From NCBI GenBank assembly GCA_963797095.1, contig CAWCNY010000004.1:160001-224000 (forward strand): 64,000 nucleotides of DNA, given 5' to 3'. Source of the stretch: an uncultured Chloroflexia bacterium (GTDB taxonomy: Bacteria; Chloroflexota; Chloroflexia; QHBQ01; JADMIH01). Position numbers and translations under genes: made by a program. Within the stretch, counting starts at the first letter, position 1, and each line of letters opens with the position of its first letter. The notes below the pieces were generated by a model, which was not told the origin of the DNA, made no database searches, and saw only the letters and a list, made by a program, of their open reading frames with translations. This document shows, piece after piece, positions 7,527-13,912 of this stretch.

Positions 7527-8645
7527 GTGACCGGCCTTAATGAAAGACAGGGACAGACCCTGGCCGAGGCTCTGGACAAGATCGAGCGTGTTCGGCAGGC
7601 ACGGAGACGCAAGTTTCACCTGCGCGACGAACGCATTACTTTGAGTCACGGTAGTGGGGGCAAAGCCACACACAACTTGATAGAGGGCGTGTTCGCGCCG
7701 GCGTTCTCAAATCCCATGTTGGATCGCATGGATGATGCGGCCATTTTTTCGGTCACTGGCGTGGGACAAACCGCATCAATCGCTTTCACCACTGACACCT
7801 ATGTTGTGAATCCCCTCTTCTTCCCCGGTGGCGACATCGGCAAGCTGGCGGTACACGGCACGATCAACGACATTGCGATGTCTGGAGCGCGACCGCTCTA
7901 TCTATCTGCCGGCTTCATACTGGAAGAGGGCTTGCCAATCAACGACCTGCGTCGTATCGTCCAATCGATGGCCGATGCGGCGACGGAGGCCGGGGTCCGG
8001 ATTGTTACGGGCGATACAAAAGTGGTGCAGAGAGGCAAAGCTGACGGGGTGTTCATCAACACGGCAGGGGTAGGCGTGCTGGAGGCAACATGGCCTATTG
8101 GGCAGGCTTTTGTACAGCCTGGTGACAAGGTGTTGTTGAGCGGGCCGGTTGGAGACCACGGTATTGCGGTTATGATGGCGCGGGAGTCTCTCGACATCGA
8201 GACCGACATTCAGAGCGATACTGCACCTTTGCACAGGCTGGTGGCCGCCGTCATGGAGGCTGCGGGAGAAGGGGTTCACTGCTTGAAAGACCCTACGCGT
8301 GGAGGGGTAGCGACCTCGCTCAACGAGATCGCAATGGCCTCCGAAGTATCAATCGCGCTGGATGAGAACTCCATTCCTGTACGCATGGGAGTACGTGGCG
8401 CATGCGAAATCCTGGGGCTCGATCCTCTAACAATCGCCAACGAGGGCAAGTTGCTAGCAATTGTTGCAGCGGAGTCGGCAGATGCGGCACTGGCAGCCAT
8501 GCGCGACCACCCTCTCGGGCGGGAAGCGGCATTAATCGGCGAGGTGCGGGCCGAACCGGCTGCGATGGTGTTTCTCCACACCGACATAGGGGGCACCCGT
8601 GTGCTGGATATGCTCGTTGGCGACCCGCTGCCGCGGATTTGCTAG
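7527..8645 (+). CDS. hypE: carbamoyl dehydratase HypE
   Basis: HGSGGK, FFPGGDIG, TGDTKVV, DPTRGG and C-terminal PRIC. Confidence 0.97.
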   Translation: MTGLNERQGQTLAEALDKIERVRQARRRKFHLRDERITLSHGSGGKATHNLIEGVFAPAFSNPMLDRMDDAAIFSVTGVGQTASIAFTTDTYVVNPLFFPGGDIGKLAVHGTINDIAMSGARPLYLSAGFILEEGLPINDLRRIVQSMADAATEAGVRIVTGDTKVVQRGKADGVFINTAGVGVLEATWPIGQAFVQPGDKVLLSGPVGDHGIAVMMARESLDIETDIQSDTAPLHRLVAAVMEAAGEGVHCLKDPTRGGVATSLNEIAMASEVSIALDENSIPVRMGVRGACEILGLDPLTIANEGKLLAIVAAESADAALAAMRDHPLGREAALIGEVRAEPAAMVFLHTDIGGTRVLDMLVGDPLPRIC

Positions 8646-8895
8646 GCCGAGCATTCAGACTAAAGAGCCAACAATCGTCGGCCATTAGAGTGGTAGGATT
8701 CTGGCAGCCACGCACTAAATGCCCTATAATAGGCACGTGAGTCGTCACACTAATGGTCCTGTAGGTTCTGGCTCAGCACTTGGTTCTATCTTGTATATCT
8801 AATAGTACCGGCTCCGAATCTAGTCGTCGGAGTCGGTTGTCGTTATATCGAACTTCTGTCCATGCTTACACGTCAAAATCGTTTAGGGAGCACTC

Positions 8896-11049
8896 ATGAC
8901 TGAAATGCTCAGCACGAATCGTGAGCGCATCGTCTGGTTGACGGCCGGCTTGTTGACGCTGATATGGCTGGTCATTTATCTCACAACGGTATCTCCCACA
9001 GTCAACTTCATAGATAGCGGTGAACTGATCACAGCCGTGCGCGAGCCTGGCGTGGCTCACCCGCCCGGATACCCTCTTTACGTTCTTCTGGGATATGTGG
9101 CTTCCCATGTGCTATGGGGAGAAGAAGCCTGGCGCGTGAATGTGCTTTCGGCGTTCTGGGGCGCGCTGGCAGTGGGCGCGTTCGTCCTTCTGACTTTCCG
9201 ATTGTCGGAATACGTGATTGCCGCTCGGACCGCGACCGCAATCCCGCGCACGAAGAGATCGACGCCGATGGCATCGAAAAATAGTGCCCCTCTCAAGCGC
9301 AGTCAGCAAGGGGTGAATCAGGCTGCCGTGAGCGCGCGCAAAGAGAGGCAACCAGCACCCGGACAGGGGAATGATCGGTCGATCACGCGGCCTGAAGAAG
9401 ACAAAGCCAGCCCGCGGCTGGTCCTTCTGATGATTGCAGGTTCAGTGGCGGGAGCATCGCTGATTGCTAGCTCCGCCACGTTTTGGAGTCGGACGGCGCA
9501 GGCCAAGATGTACAGCCTTCACTTCTTCTTCGTCGCCGTGATCCTCATACTTGCCCTCGGATACAGGCGTGCCTATGAGCGCCAGGACGAAAAGACCGCA
9601 GCGCGCTGGTTGATATTCCTGGCCGCTACGCTTGGCCTTTCGTTTACCAATCACCTTATGACTGTGCTGCTTGTCATACCGGTTGCTCTCATGTTGCTTA
9701 TGGGTGAGGATGCGAGCAGGAGACTTACCTTTATCGTTCGGAGGTTAGCTGTACTTCTTCCGGCGTTCTTGCTACCGTTGCTGCTCTATCTCTATCTCCC
9801 GATCAGAGCCTCTGAAGGGCCAATTATGAATTGGGGAACACCAGATACCTGGGGGGACTTCTGGAGGCACATTTCGGGCTGGCAGTTTAGCACTTTTCTG
9901 CTCAGTGATATCGGTGCCAATATAACGCGCAACAGCGCATTGATCCCACGATACGCGGGCGAACAGTGGGGCTTTCTGAGCTTAATCGTCATCGCAGGCG
10001 GATTTGTAGCAGGTGCTCTCCTCTTCAGGGTACGGCCTTCGGTCCTCTGGCCGACGTTCGTATTGCTTGTGCTCACGCTGTTCTTCTCACTTATCTATGG
10101 TATCTCCGAGATCGAGCCATACATGACACCGTTCTATGCAATGTTAGCCGTGTGGATTGGGTTGGCTCCGGTTTCATGGTTCCTATATTCGAGAGAGCAC
10201 GCTCGACAGCATTATCGCCAATCACCTGGGGCGCGCAACGCGCGGGCTGCTACGGAGCGTGGTAAGCAACTGGATGTTCCCTGGTTGGTAACGGCAGTGA
10301 TGGGCGTCGCGGCATTGGGCAGCATCTTTCTCGTCTACCCACAAGAGAACTTCAGCAATAACAGGCTGGCGGAGCAGTTCGTACTCAATGTGTTCAACGA
10401 ATTACCTGAGAACAGCATCGTCATCACAGATTACTGGGATTTCTATGCTCCCACATACTATCTGCAGATCGTAAAGGGGGTGCGGCAGGATGTTGTGGTT
10501 ATTGATAAATCCTTGCTGCGCTATCCCTGGTATACAACGCAGTTGCGGCTCCGTTATCCATGGCTGATTGAGAATTCCAACGACATTGTGGCGAGCTTTT
10601 CTCTTGAACAGCGCAAGTGGGTGAACGGTGAATATTTTGACTCCAATGCGCTCACCAAGTATTATTTTGACTTGCTCACATCCTTTGTTGAGCGCAATGC
10701 ACCGGACCATCCAGCATATATGCTAATCTCCCAGCCATGTCCCGCCAACCAGCAATGCGAGGAATCACAGATCGCGCCAACGTGGACACGCGTGCCGCTT
10801 GGATTGGTCGATAAACTCGTACCACAGGGCACCACCAATGTCTCGATTCCGCCGGAGCCGACCTATGTGACCGATGGTATTACGACAAATCCTGTTGGGC
10901 TCGATGACGCGGCCCGTCTCAACTCGGTACGGTACGTGGATGCCTACCGTCGCCTTGCCGTGCTCTACAGCGCGGCACAAGAAAGCCAGGCAGCCCAAAG
11001 AATGACAGATCGTGCTGCACAAATCGAGGCGGTGCTGCAAAACAGATAG
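8896..11049 (+). CDS. DUF2723 / TMEM260-like (GT117) membrane glycosyltransferase
   Basis: DSGELIT...GVAHPPGYPLY motif, YLPIRA and NWGTPDTW; many TM helices. Confidence 0.85.
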   Translation: MTEMLSTNRERIVWLTAGLLTLIWLVIYLTTVSPTVNFIDSGELITAVREPGVAHPPGYPLYVLLGYVASHVLWGEEAWRVNVLSAFWGALAVGAFVLLTFRLSEYVIAARTATAIPRTKRSTPMASKNSAPLKRSQQGVNQAAVSARKERQPAPGQGNDRSITRPEEDKASPRLVLLMIAGSVAGASLIASSATFWSRTAQAKMYSLHFFFVAVILILALGYRRAYERQDEKTAARWLIFLAATLGLSFTNHLMTVLLVIPVALMLLMGEDASRRLTFIVRRLAVLLPAFLLPLLLYLYLPIRASEGPIMNWGTPDTWGDFWRHISGWQFSTFLLSDIGANITRNSALIPRYAGEQWGFLSLIVIAGGFVAGALLFRVRPSVLWPTFVLLVLTLFFSLIYGISEIEPYMTPFYAMLAVWIGLAPVSWFLYSREHARQHYRQSPGARNARAATERGKQLDVPWLVTAVMGVAALGSIFLVYPQENFSNNRLAEQFVLNVFNELPENSIVITDYWDFYAPTYYLQIVKGVRQDVVVIDKSLLRYPWYTTQLRLRYPWLIENSNDIVASFSLEQRKWVNGEYFDSNALTKYYFDLLTSFVERNAPDHPAYMLISQPCPANQQCEESQIAPTWTRVPLGLVDKLVPQGTTNVSIPPEPTYVTDGITTNPVGLDDAARLNSVRYVDAYRRLAVLYSAAQESQAAQRMTDRAAQIEAVLQNR

Positions 11050-11053
11050 TTGG

Positions 11054-12442
11054 CTAGGATATGCCGAACACGCTGCGACGCTTCACAAAAATATAGGCCA
11101 CTACGCCAGCACACACGAGTGCGCCGATGAAGAGCGCGACAGGCGCGCCAAAGTGATCTGCTATGATGCCTGCTTGCAAATTGCCTGCGGGAGCCATGCC
11201 CACAAAGAGGAATGCAAATACTCCATTCACCCGCCCGCGTAGCTCGTCGGGCACGCTCGTTTGGACCAGGGTATTGACGGTGGCATTTATCGAGATCATC
11301 GCGCATCCAACACCGACAAGCAGCGCAAGCGACAGCCAGTATGTGGTCGAAAGGGCGAATGTGCCCAGGAATATCGGCAGTCCAATCGCACCCAGCATGA
11401 TGATACGCCCACGTCTGGTGGTGGACCTTCCACTCTGGATAGTCAGACTCAGGGCCCCAATCAGCGATCCCACGCCCGCCAGCGCCATCAGGGTGCCGTA
11501 CCCCTCTGTGCCCACCTTGAGAATACTGTCCGCCATGATCGGCATCAGAACGGAGTAGGGAAAGGCGAAGATGCTGACAGTCATGATCAGCAACATTAGG
11601 GTGCCGATCACTGCATTGTGTCGGACGTAGCTTAGGCCTTCCAGAATTCTCTTTGCTGAGTTGTTAGAATCGCGCTTCCTCACAACAGGGTCGATCTTCA
11701 TCATGAACAACCCCGCAATCACAGCTAGATAAGAAATCCCGTTCAAGAGGAACGCCATGCCTGGGCCTTGCCATGCAAGGGCTATGGCTCCGATTGCAGG
11801 CCCGAGCACGCGTGCTCCATTGAAGATGGCAGAATTGAGGGCAACTGCATTCATTAGGTCGCCTTTACCCACCATCTCTACGGTGAACGACTGGCGAGCA
11901 GGCGCATCGAATGCGAAGACGCTGCCAAGCAAGAGCGAGATCGCGAGCACATGCCAAACCTCAACCGTGCCCGCCAGAGTCAAAGCTGCCAATACGAAGG
12001 CGGCCAGCATCGAGATTGTTTGTGTCCAGATAATGAGGGTTCGCTTCGGAACCTTGTCTGCAATCTCGCCCGCCCACAATGAAAGGAGCAGCACAGGTAT
12101 GGAGTTGGCAAAGCCCACCATACCAAGCCAGAAGGCGGAGTGAGTAAGTTCCAGTACTAACCAGGCGCGGGCCACCATTTGCATCCATGTACCCACCAGG
12201 GAAATCAGCTGCCCTGTCCAGTAGAGCCTGAAATTCCTGTGTCCAAGCGCCCGCAGCGACAGAGGCAAGGGGATATTGATCGCCAGTAGAGGAAAAGATG
12301 GCCGACTAGTAACTTCTGATTCGGTGGTTACATCTTGGGGAGAAGGTGTTAGCGTGGCGCTGTCCAATGCTATTGCCTGTTGTAGTGGCGCGCCCCCACC
12401 TCCATATTGAAAGGTCTCAGGTCTGTTTGCTTGTTGTTGCAT
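11054..12442 (-). CDS. MFS transporter (DHA3/MFS_3-like)
   Basis: RNFRLYWTGQLISLVGTWMQ, DAPARQSF, NAVALNS and PDELRGRV; about 12 TM. Confidence 0.92.
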   Translation of the reverse strand: MQQQANRPETFQYGGGGAPLQQAIALDSATLTPSPQDVTTESEVTSRPSFPLLAINIPLPLSLRALGHRNFRLYWTGQLISLVGTWMQMVARAWLVLELTHSAFWLGMVGFANSIPVLLLSLWAGEIADKVPKRTLIIWTQTISMLAAFVLAALTLAGTVEVWHVLAISLLLGSVFAFDAPARQSFTVEMVGKGDLMNAVALNSAIFNGARVLGPAIGAIALAWQGPGMAFLLNGISYLAVIAGLFMMKIDPVVRKRDSNNSAKRILEGLSYVRHNAVIGTLMLLIMTVSIFAFPYSVLMPIMADSILKVGTEGYGTLMALAGVGSLIGALSLTIQSGRSTTRRGRIIMLGAIGLPIFLGTFALSTTYWLSLALLVGVGCAMISINATVNTLVQTSVPDELRGRVNGVFAFLFVGMAPAGNLQAGIIADHFGAPVALFIGALVCAGVVAYIFVKRRSVFGIS

Positions 12443-12479
12443 AAATCCCTTTTGCGATATAAGTTGTGGTAGTTGATAT

Positions 12480-12514
12480 GTTAGAAGTATATCTAACTTA
12501 GAGGCTTAAGTCAA
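12480..12514 (-). promoter_or_regulatory. sigma70 promoter of the MFS gene with an overlapping operator palindrome
   Basis: Minus strand TTGACT-17-TATACT (12514-12486). The inverted repeat GTTAGA-N6-TCTAAC (12480-12497) is centred on the -10. Confidence 0.7.
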
Positions 12515-12556
12515 TTGATCGACGCTCTCACCGAACGCCTTACGACGTGGAAAACC

Positions 12557-12585
12557 TTGACTGTCACACCCACGAATGATATAAT
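12557..12585 (+). promoter_or_regulatory. near-consensus sigma70 promoter
   Basis: TTGACT-17-TATAAT with an extended -10 TG. Confidence 0.8.
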
Positions 12586-12650
12586 GGCGTTGTCGGTGAA
12601 AAATCGCCGGCCTGGCCAATCGGTTCTCAGTCGTGAGCAAGGAGGTTCTT

Positions 12651-12704
12651 ATGACCACAACCAAAACTCACGTGATGGAAGTTCGATTCCAGGTGGATCG
12701 ATAA
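12651..12704 (+). CDS. 17-aa small ORF MTTTKTHVMEVRFQVDR
   Basis: AAGGAGG RBS 5 nt before the ATG; lies inside the candidate transcript. Confidence 0.45.
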   Translation: MTTTKTHVMEVRFQVDR

Positions 12705-12752
12705 GGCCTCCAGGAAAGACTTTCGGGTCGTTCCGGGGGCACAACCGAACTG

Positions 12753-12789
12753 GAAGGCACTCAGCATAACTGAGTGCCTTCTGCCTTTT
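12753..12789. terminator. intrinsic terminator hairpin, possibly bidirectional
   Basis: GAAGGCACTCAG-cataa-CTGAGTGCCTTC 12-bp perfect stem between converging units. Confidence 0.75.
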
Positions 12790-12808
12790 ACCGCAAACTT
12801 GCTCGAAA

Positions 12809-13912
12809 TTAGATTACGAATTTGCCGTTCTCGTAGAGCGTTGCGCCATCCACGACTACGCGTCCTTCCTTCATATCAGTCACCATGTCCCAATGGATCG
12901 CTGAGGTATTGGTTCCTCCAGCGTTCGGATAGGCATTCCCCAGGGCGCAATGTATAGAACCGGCAATCTTTTCGTCAAAGAGAGTGTTTCTTGTTATCCT
13001 GGTAACGCCGGTATTCGTACCGATGGCAAACTCTCCTAGCCGCCTCGCACCTTCGTCCAGGTTTAGCATTGCGTTCAAATAATCCTCGCCCGTATCTGCC
13101 CGATGTTCGGTAACACGCCCGTTCTCAAACTTCAGGTACACTCCCTGCACAGAGCGTCCATTGTAGGACGCCGGGTAGCTAAAGGTGATATGACCCTGGA
13201 CGGTCTCATGGACGGGCGAGGTGAAGACCTCGCCACTCGGGAAATTGCGTTTGCCATCGGAATTGATGAACACCCTTCCTTCTATTGACATCTCCAGGTC
13301 GGTGCCGGGCGCTTCGACTTGCACTTGCCGTTTCCCGGCTAACCAATCGACTATGCGCTGCTGATCTTCCGACACTTCACGCCAGCGCTCAGCAGGCTCG
13401 CGATCATCATCAAGGAGGCAGGCGCGAAACACGAAGTCTTCAAATTCGGAGAGACTCATCTCAGCGTCCTGGGCGTAGGCTTCTGTTGGAAAGAGAGTGA
13501 GGCAATGAGGTCTGCCCTCCATAATGCGCTTCATATAGCCAGCCCCAATCGGGCCTGCCCCTCTCTTTAGAAGTCCTAGACGGGCAGTATCTACATTATT
13601 GAGGCTGCGTGTATTCTCGTCGCTTAAGATGCGAAGTATAGCATCCGATTCTTCCACTATCCGCATCTGGTATGGATTTACCCTGGTTAGTTGAGCGTCA
13701 TTTCCTTCTTTCAAGAGCAGTTCATCGAGCCACGGAGTGCTGATAAAGACATAGGGTTGAGCGCCCCGCAAGATTACTTCGTGGGAAACCGATTTGATCA
13801 GTGGCAGGGCGGCTGTCGTGCCGACAATCGCCACTTCCCATCCTTCTTGTGCCTCCAGGGAGTACTCGACGAGCACCCGAGCCATCCTGGCAACTCTTGG
13901 GTCTTCCAGCAC
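12809..13912 (-). CDS. M29 family aminopeptidase (AmpS/AmpT-like)
   Basis: NFPSGEVFT, LGEFAIGTN, LFDEKIAG, HCALGNAY and SAIHWD. Confidence 0.93.
   Translation of the reverse strand: MLEDPRVARMARVLVEYSLEAQEGWEVAIVGTTAALPLIKSVSHEVILRGAQPYVFISTPWLDELLLKEGNDAQLTRVNPYQMRIVEESDAILRILSDENTRSLNNVDTARLGLLKRGAGPIGAGYMKRIMEGRPHCLTLFPTEAYAQDAEMSLSEFEDFVFRACLLDDDREPAERWREVSEDQQRIVDWLAGKRQVQVEAPGTDLEMSIEGRVFINSDGKRNFPSGEVFTSPVHETVQGHITFSYPASYNGRSVQGVYLKFENGRVTEHRADTGEDYLNAMLNLDEGARRLGEFAIGTNTGVTRITRNTLFDEKIAGSIHCALGNAYPNAGGTNTSAIHWDMVTDMKEGRVVVDGATLYENGKFVI

Follow-up and report, generated by a model that had tools for sequence, protein, structure and literature searches.

Very small peptides, and the short RNAs that encode them, are known from several bacterial settings. 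Small-protein mRNAs and dual-function sRNAs are represented by SgrS/SgrT, RNAIII with delta-haemolysin and SR1/SR1P, and type I toxin mRNAs by hok, tisB and aapA1. Regulatory leader and arrest peptides include TnaC, SecM and the thr leader, and PatS of Anabaena, a filamentous bacterium, is a morphogen peptide of 13-17 residues. Peptides as short as 17 residues escape gene callers, and to our knowledge next to nothing has been learned of the small proteins and small RNAs of the Chloroflexia, a major, mostly uncultured soil group whose members include filamentous organisms.

The element considered here was noticed in a 64,000-nt stretch of DNA from an uncultured Chloroflexia bacterium, hereafter the window, as a stand-alone, structured and unannotated transcript carrying an ORF of 17 codons. 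A new sRNA class, a dual-function RNA and a gated peptide mRNA reminiscent of those of type I toxins were put forward for it. The best reading of the analysis described below is that it represents a new micropeptide family, and neither a new RNA class nor a type I toxin.

Locus and transcription signals

The element lies in a gap of ~370 nt without a long ORF between an MFS_3 gene (11054-12442, minus strand), which is divergent relative to it, and a Peptidase_M29 gene (12809-13912, minus strand), which is convergent; no long gene is enclosed, as the original prediction had said. The near-consensus promoter claimed there, TTGACT-17-TATAAT on the plus strand (12557-12585), is of sigma-70 type with 11 of 12 matches in a promoter scan, and TG precedes its -10 (extended -10). 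TTGAC and a TG-n-TA..T -10 are kept in 20/20 aligned loci of the genus, and transcription would start near 12592. At the other end the claimed 12-bp terminator was found to be a perfect inverted repeat (12753-12764 / 12770-12781) with a 5-nt loop, followed by CTGCCTTTT, the whole with its interrupted T-run spanning 12753-12789 on the plus strand. Because of that interruption a simple terminator scan made no plus-strand call at the element; in most relatives the T-run is cleaner than in the window.

Just 5' of the -35 hexamer is the motif GTGGAAAA (12547-12554, plus strand). When the 45 nt upstream of the -35 were scanned in 20 genus loci, GTGGAAA was present exactly, in either orientation, in nine, and by eye most of the others have close variants, GTGTAAA being one. 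In the window and in L002-L058, GTGGAAA or its reverse complement, TTTCCAC, sits 3-15 nt 5' of the -35; an UP-like element or a site for a regulator are possible roles for it. The divergent MFS_3 promoter, TTGACT-17-TATACT (12486-12514, minus strand), is ~45 nt from that of the peptide gene. Relatives with a MerR gene (L005, L006, L019, L020 and L058) have, at the corresponding place upstream, repeated ACGT..ACGTCAAG-like words; these may serve the MerR-MFS_3 unit as its operator. Elsewhere in the window, positions 8896-11049 encode a 717-residue protein with a TMEM260-like protein O-mannosyltransferase domain, a domain that strikes us as unusual for a bacterium.

The peptide and the signs of its translation

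The conserved coding core of the element is the 17-codon ORF MTTTKTHVMEVRFQVDR with its TAA stop (12651-12704, plus strand), with the Shine-Dalgarno sequence AAGGAGG at 12639-12645 and the AUG at 12651-12653. Charged residues and His make up six of the 17, and hydrophobic residues are never more than two in a row. The core kept across families is V-[LM]-x-[VM]-R-[FY]-Q-V-D. In the peptide alignment M1, V8, R12, Q14 and D16 are invariant and positions 9, 11, 13 and 15 are conservatively hydrophobic. Residues alternate, with Leu/Met, Val/Met, Phe/Tyr and Val on one face and Val8, Arg12, Gln14 and Asp16 on the other, a pattern suggestive of an amphipathic beta-strand. Conservation is highest over the ten residues preceding the stop; the N-terminal Thr run of the window (MTTT) is not conserved, the relatives having TN, TS, FK or YR. 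The genome from which the window comes has a single copy of the peptide gene, and the strand motif is absent from any longer protein of that genome.

Every copy, in 78 locus entries, has AAGGAG(G) 5-9 nt before the start and an intact frame; disrupted ORFs numbered zero there and zero among the 20 loci from an ORF-blind BLAST search. A codon table built on 26 distinct 42-nt ORF cores has all six codons for Arg12 (CGA, CGG, CGT, CGC, AGA and AGG), five for Arg17, four for Val8 and five for Leu9, and the stop codons are TAA in 12, TAG in 11 and TGA in 3. Changes in ORF length are of whole codons: +1 in L019 and +4 in family f8, whose peptide has 21 residues compared with 17 in the window. By the Nei-Gojobori method, on 25 cores, pS is 0.685 and pN 0.125 in frame, giving a pN/pS of 0.18 (0.12 within the genus alone) against a range of 0.35-4.1 in other frames: 0.94 and 3.6 in the two other sense frames and 0.79, 0.35 and 4.1 in the antisense frames, which contain 9, 42 and 3 stop codons respectively. 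Codon conservation was one of the checks suggested with the original prediction, and its surmise that the small ORF matters is borne out at the level of the peptide. In families f3 and f8 most nucleotides and the UTRs differ (for example GTGAGGTTCCAAGTTGAC versus GTTCGATTCCAGGTGGAT in the window) with V-L-E-[VM]-R-[FY]-Q-V-D kept.

The marks of a micropeptide gene are present, namely purifying selection in one frame together with a ribosome binding site and an intact frame in all homologues, and the element is very probably protein-coding; on comparative grounds the signs of translation appear unusually clear. The peptide alone does not account for the degree of conservation seen in the genus at the ACCG box, at the 5' UCGG and at third codon positions such as CAGGTGGAT, so that there may also be some RNA-level function or switch. 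Two other sets of reading frames were considered and rejected, an 84-codon ORF (12515-12769) and those ORFs that overlap the element on the minus strand: neither has a Pfam match, and both are made unlikely by their stop codons and by the pN/pS found out of frame.

Novelty and distribution

An Rfam match had been named beforehand as a possible refutation. There were 0 at gathering scores over the 64-kb window, with the Chloroflexi motifs among the families covered, and a permissive search of 12400-12900 gave a best E-value of 4.9, its matches being terminator-hairpin look-alikes. ARAGORN reported no tRNA or tmRNA at the element, and the opinion that it is not tmRNA, RNase P, SRP or 6S RNA stands with these results. 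Pfam gave no match for the 20-21-residue peptide variants, the sole NCBIfam match was far below its cut-off (14.3 bits vs 50), and the best hit of a PDB profile search had E = 0.98. The family libraries searched thus contain nothing related to the peptide, nor is it described in those parts of the literature that the search could reach.

In the relatives, another of the suggested checks, BLAST finds the element in 25 of 41 related genomes: 21/24 other genomes of the same genus, 3/9 of family f3 and 0/5 of family f2. Searching a species-representative genome collection with an exact degenerate pattern yielded 18 loci, all in MAGs of Chloroflexia or Chloroflexota bacteria. A class-wide search with a peptide-level pattern, allowing up to 3 mismatches, matched 29 of 401 genomes (f1 21/25, f3 3/9, f8 3/8 and f12 1/90), and its reversed-pattern control matched none. 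The f12 match (G225), with 3 mismatches and no stop codon, lies in a long stretch without promoter, Shine-Dalgarno sequence or hairpins and was judged to be due to chance. A relaxed pattern run on 401 genomes from across the phylum matched two, this genome and one of f8, and viral contigs gave 0 matches to the degenerate peptide pattern. In the genomes searched, the family is confined to three families of the class Chloroflexia. Two unpublished genomes, G021 and G022, are counted in the tallies and left out of alignments A1 and A3; because their peptide sequences are also present in public MAGs, no conclusion depends on these two by themselves.

Common to the aligned genus loci are the promoter, the invariant 5' UCGG, the Shine-Dalgarno sequence, the ORF, a hairpin after the stop, an ACCGRAC box and the terminator. 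Across families it is the peptide that is conserved and not the RNA sequence, and on that account a new sRNA class does not describe the element best. The f3 loci have two tandem peptide copies, slightly different, on one transcript. In one locus at a contig end (L071, genome G037) the bicistronic peptide transcript has just downstream of it a direct repeat of ~85-100 nt (~8440-8550 and 8600-8709); this repeat, from ~8442 and ~8611, could be a repeat element or a contig-end assembly artefact.

Expression

Short RNA contigs that cover only 12597-12756 are present in three metatranscriptomes of three studies, from rhizosphere, freshwater sediment and soil; in the three RNA libraries none was found on 12400-12596 or 12757-13000. 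They are assembled contigs of relatives (85-99% alike), from which presence in RNA libraries can be read but neither the ends nor the strand nor the level of the transcript. The promoter is crossed by a DNA contig, at 12538-12688. The analysis covered four sequencing runs, all others having less than a tenth of the sampled words. One RNA library with a peptide-gene contig, from soil, is very small, only ~11 million letters, and presence there suggests an abundant RNA. Expression of the element is indicated by these contigs, and its high abundance is suggested.

Structure of the RNA

From the predicted start, 204 nt fold with -83.4 kcal/mol compared with -62.2 +/- 4.6 for shuffled sequences (z = -4.66, 0/200 as good). 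The opposite strand folds well too (z = -4.24), so folding energy alone does not give the strand. Helices were assessed on 20 genus sequences by cells paired, pairs changed on both sides and mean predicted probability. Covariation, also among the suggested checks, is strong in the hairpin after the stop and in the terminator. The former, P4 (12706-12740, plus strand), has a UUCG cap, is 98.6% paired, has 8/14 pairs changed on both sides and a probability of 0.99; in the terminator helix (12753-12789, plus strand) 97.3% of cells are paired and 11/13 pairs are changed on both sides in relatives. P4 begins 1 nt past the stop codon, and by eye a GC-rich hairpin directly follows the stop in f3 and f8 as well.

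P1, a 5' hairpin (GUCGGUGA / UCGCCGGC, 12592-12611, plus strand), is 93.3% paired with 1/6 pairs changed on both sides. Its probability is low, 0.26, because a helix between the 5' end and the 3' box competes with it, the UCGG in its 5' arm, invariant in the 20 genus sequences, being the alternative partner of that box. P2 (CGUGAG 12632-12637 / CUCACG 12667-12672, plus strand) is 98.3% paired, with 0/6 pairs changed on both sides, 3/6 on one side, and a probability of 0.85. Its loop contains both the Shine-Dalgarno sequence and the AUG, predicted in the 20 relatives to be unpaired with probabilities of 0.53 and 0.63, compared with 0.33 for the whole RNA. By eye, unlike sequences in f8 could form a similar enclosing helix; a single fold of the f8 RNA is strong (z = -5.9), and the UTR sequences of f3 and f8 are unrelated to those of the genus. 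A long-range CCUG/CAGG helix was rejected, being just 75% paired and lost in three sequences.

How does this compare with what had been drawn from the window's sequence by itself? The first and fourth of the four hairpins proposed, P1 and P4, exist and are kept in relatives. The second (12630-12655, GUCGU/AUGAC) loses its 5' arm in L002-L004 and competes with the conserved P2, and the sequestering of ribosome binding site and start that it implied is contradicted by their being predicted more open than the RNA as a whole. The third, 'T-loop-like' (12676-12691), is codons 9-14, is absent from the consensus fold and drew no tRNA or tmRNA call from ARAGORN. CACAACC(A/G)AA does occur at 12656 and 12740; the mutually exclusive folds in which either copy would pair with CGGTT are not conserved, because the first CACAACC falls in the variable N-terminal codons and the CGGTT, at 12621-12625, in a variable stretch. 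The best-supported model is of a compact RNA with its 5' end predicted to be base-paired, its ribosome site in a loop, a clamp hairpin after the stop and then the terminator.

A probable mini-mRNA for a trans-acting peptide

On balance the element is probably a stable, structured mini-mRNA for a trans-acting micropeptide of amphipathic beta-strand type. A strong promoter would yield a monocistronic RNA of ~200 nt of which the 17-residue peptide would be the only conserved product, the RNA being built so as to be stable and efficiently translated. Pairing would tie up its 5' end, either within P1 or to the ACCGRAC box that lies just ahead of the terminator; a perfect Shine-Dalgarno sequence and the AUG would be offered in an open loop closed by P2; and a stable hairpin right after the stop codon would be followed by that of the terminator, closing the 3' end. 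These hairpins would have a stabilising role. The peptide, for its part, may dock in trans as a short amphipathic beta-strand onto a protein partner, the mode of action to which its alternating residues most likely point.

Is the RNA also more than a messenger? It is possible, if unlikely, that it has a dual function, with the peptide being made and the RNA acting as riboregulator or conformational switch, translation and conformation being coupled through the ACCGRAC box. The box, AACCGAAC (12743-12750, plus strand), has two possible partners, the 5' end (12593-12597), which would give a closed form, and the ORF's Val-Arg-Phe codons (12680-12688), and both its ACCG and the 5' UCGG are invariant in the 20 genus sequences. 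The helix of box and 5' end is 88.3% paired with 2/6 pairs changed on both sides, and L006 shows a compensated U-to-C with A-to-G change; its core of five pairs is paired in 97 of 100 cells, and its predicted probability, 0.55 in the mean, exceeds 0.5 in 13 of the 20. The alternative, candidate helix P3, involves 9 nt of the ORF that are 89% complementary to 12743-12751 and is 83.8% paired, with 2/8 pairs changed on both sides, so that both pairings can be drawn and the predicted ensemble is divided between them. In a single fold of the f8 RNA the Arg-Phe codons are again paired, their complement being located downstream, beyond the post-stop hairpin. However, P3 has a mean probability of only 0.11 and is lost in L055 and L058, neither the box nor the 5' motif is conserved in f3 or f8, and helices on invariant letters carry no covariation signal.

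A bolder proposal, and quite an unlikely one, would join such a translation-coupled RNA switch to signalling. By alternating between the closed form and one with the Val-Arg-Phe codons masked by the box, the RNA would set the output of a 17-residue beta-strand peptide. The peptide might in turn be a lineage-specific signal of filamentous soil Chloroflexia, passed between cells or used in development, an analogue of PatS but not related to it.

Genomic neighbourhood

Genus loci usually have a divergent (MerR-)MFS_3 unit on one side and a convergent M29 aminopeptidase on the other, and in 19 of them, with 43 neighbour ORFs scanned, M29 was found in 13, MFS_3 in 10 and MerR in 7. In G024 the neighbours of the peptide gene are rplT and a GH94 gene. 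In f8 the peptide gene is flanked by a dtd or zinc-finger gene and an NlpC/P60 gene, and its f3 neighbours are Peptidase_M3 (G034), Hsp20 or unknown genes. Neighbourhoods thus vary from family to family, which is what a self-contained gene would lead one to expect. In both of two f8 loci (L068 7826-8372, L069 7786-8450) the peptide terminator and the NlpC/P60 gene downstream of it on the same strand are ~550-670 nt apart, with apparently non-coding DNA between them.

These neighbours lend some colour to the peptide being secreted or modified, a signal or RiPP-like precursor exported by a MerR-controlled MFS_3 protein, trimmed by a peptidase and passed from cell to cell in a filamentous bacterium. 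The window itself has MFS_3 and M29, a peptidase adjoins in the other families too (M3 in G034, NlpC/P60 in f8), and the slightly different tandem copies of f3 resemble precursor arrays. Yet the f3 and f8 loci have neither MFS_3 nor MerR, 'peptidase neighbour' is a class picked after the data were seen, and the peptide lacks both a signal sequence and a Cys, Ser or Thr-rich core. Its conserved part is C-terminal and its variable part N-terminal; most leader-core precursors have the reverse arrangement. A Pfam scan found no RiPP-type enzyme (radical SAM, YcaO, ATP-grasp or lanthipeptide) among 31 neighbour ORFs in f3 and f8 (within ~6 kb) and the 43 of the genus (within ~1.5 kb). Over these distances the idea of a RiPP precursor finds no backing, although a more distant enzyme cluster may exist, and a secreted or modified peptide in general has to be regarded as distinctly improbable.

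Could the peptide instead act in cis, its last ten residues stalling the ribosome at or near the stop and so opening P4 and remodelling the RNA? The concentration of conservation in just those residues, and a stable hairpin that by eye starts 0-1 nt after the stop in all three families, are what make this worth considering. Against it, the last residue varies (R, S or E), one copy is extended by four residues, ITGP, and a strong promoter and tandem copies are more what one expects of a gene for a product than of a sensor. There is, moreover, no downstream gene on the transcript to regulate, since the terminator follows, and stalling of this kind is very unlikely. The related notion of a transcription-attenuation leader peptide was rejected, no same-strand gene coming after the terminator; the next gene is the convergent M29, as in most loci of the genus. 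That the element is a non-coding structured sRNA with a fortuitous ORF, for which its strong folding and high nucleotide conservation within the genus might be cited, is scarcely credible in view of its codon usage, stop-codon turnover, in-frame length changes and low pN/pS, and of a peptide kept in f3 and f8 despite diverged RNA.

Comparison with known systems

With the element taken as a mini-mRNA for a peptide that would act in trans, it is a candidate for finding a new peptide-protein interaction, and a clean example of an mRNA shaped over its whole length by conserved structure. By analogy with SgrS/SgrT, RNAIII and SR1/SR1P, it is a short stand-alone structured transcript with its own promoter and terminator and a very small peptide. 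It differs from them in having no sequence or family relation, in that its peptide, at 17 residues, is shorter, and in that the peptide, not the RNA, is what is conserved across families of the element.

With hok, tisB and aapA1 it shares a small ORF in a compact fold and, as predicted here, long-distance pairing of the 5' end with a 3' box. The likeness to type I toxin mRNAs that had been seen in it goes little further: its amphipathic peptide bears charges and lacks a hydrophobic helix, its Shine-Dalgarno sequence and AUG are predicted to be open, its own genome has one copy of the element, and the promoter scan gave no site antisense to it, the two minus-strand sites lying outside.

TnaC, SecM and the thr leader resemble it in having a short ORF with conserved C-terminal residues and RNA structure directly afterward. 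Unlike them it has no downstream cistron here, the terminator intervening, and the Thr run MTTT is not conserved. As for PatS, the peptide is without the RGSGR motif, sequence similarity or a known HetR-like partner, and the parallel is one of analogy: a tiny stand-alone gene for a peptide of ~17 residues of which the C-terminal part is conserved.
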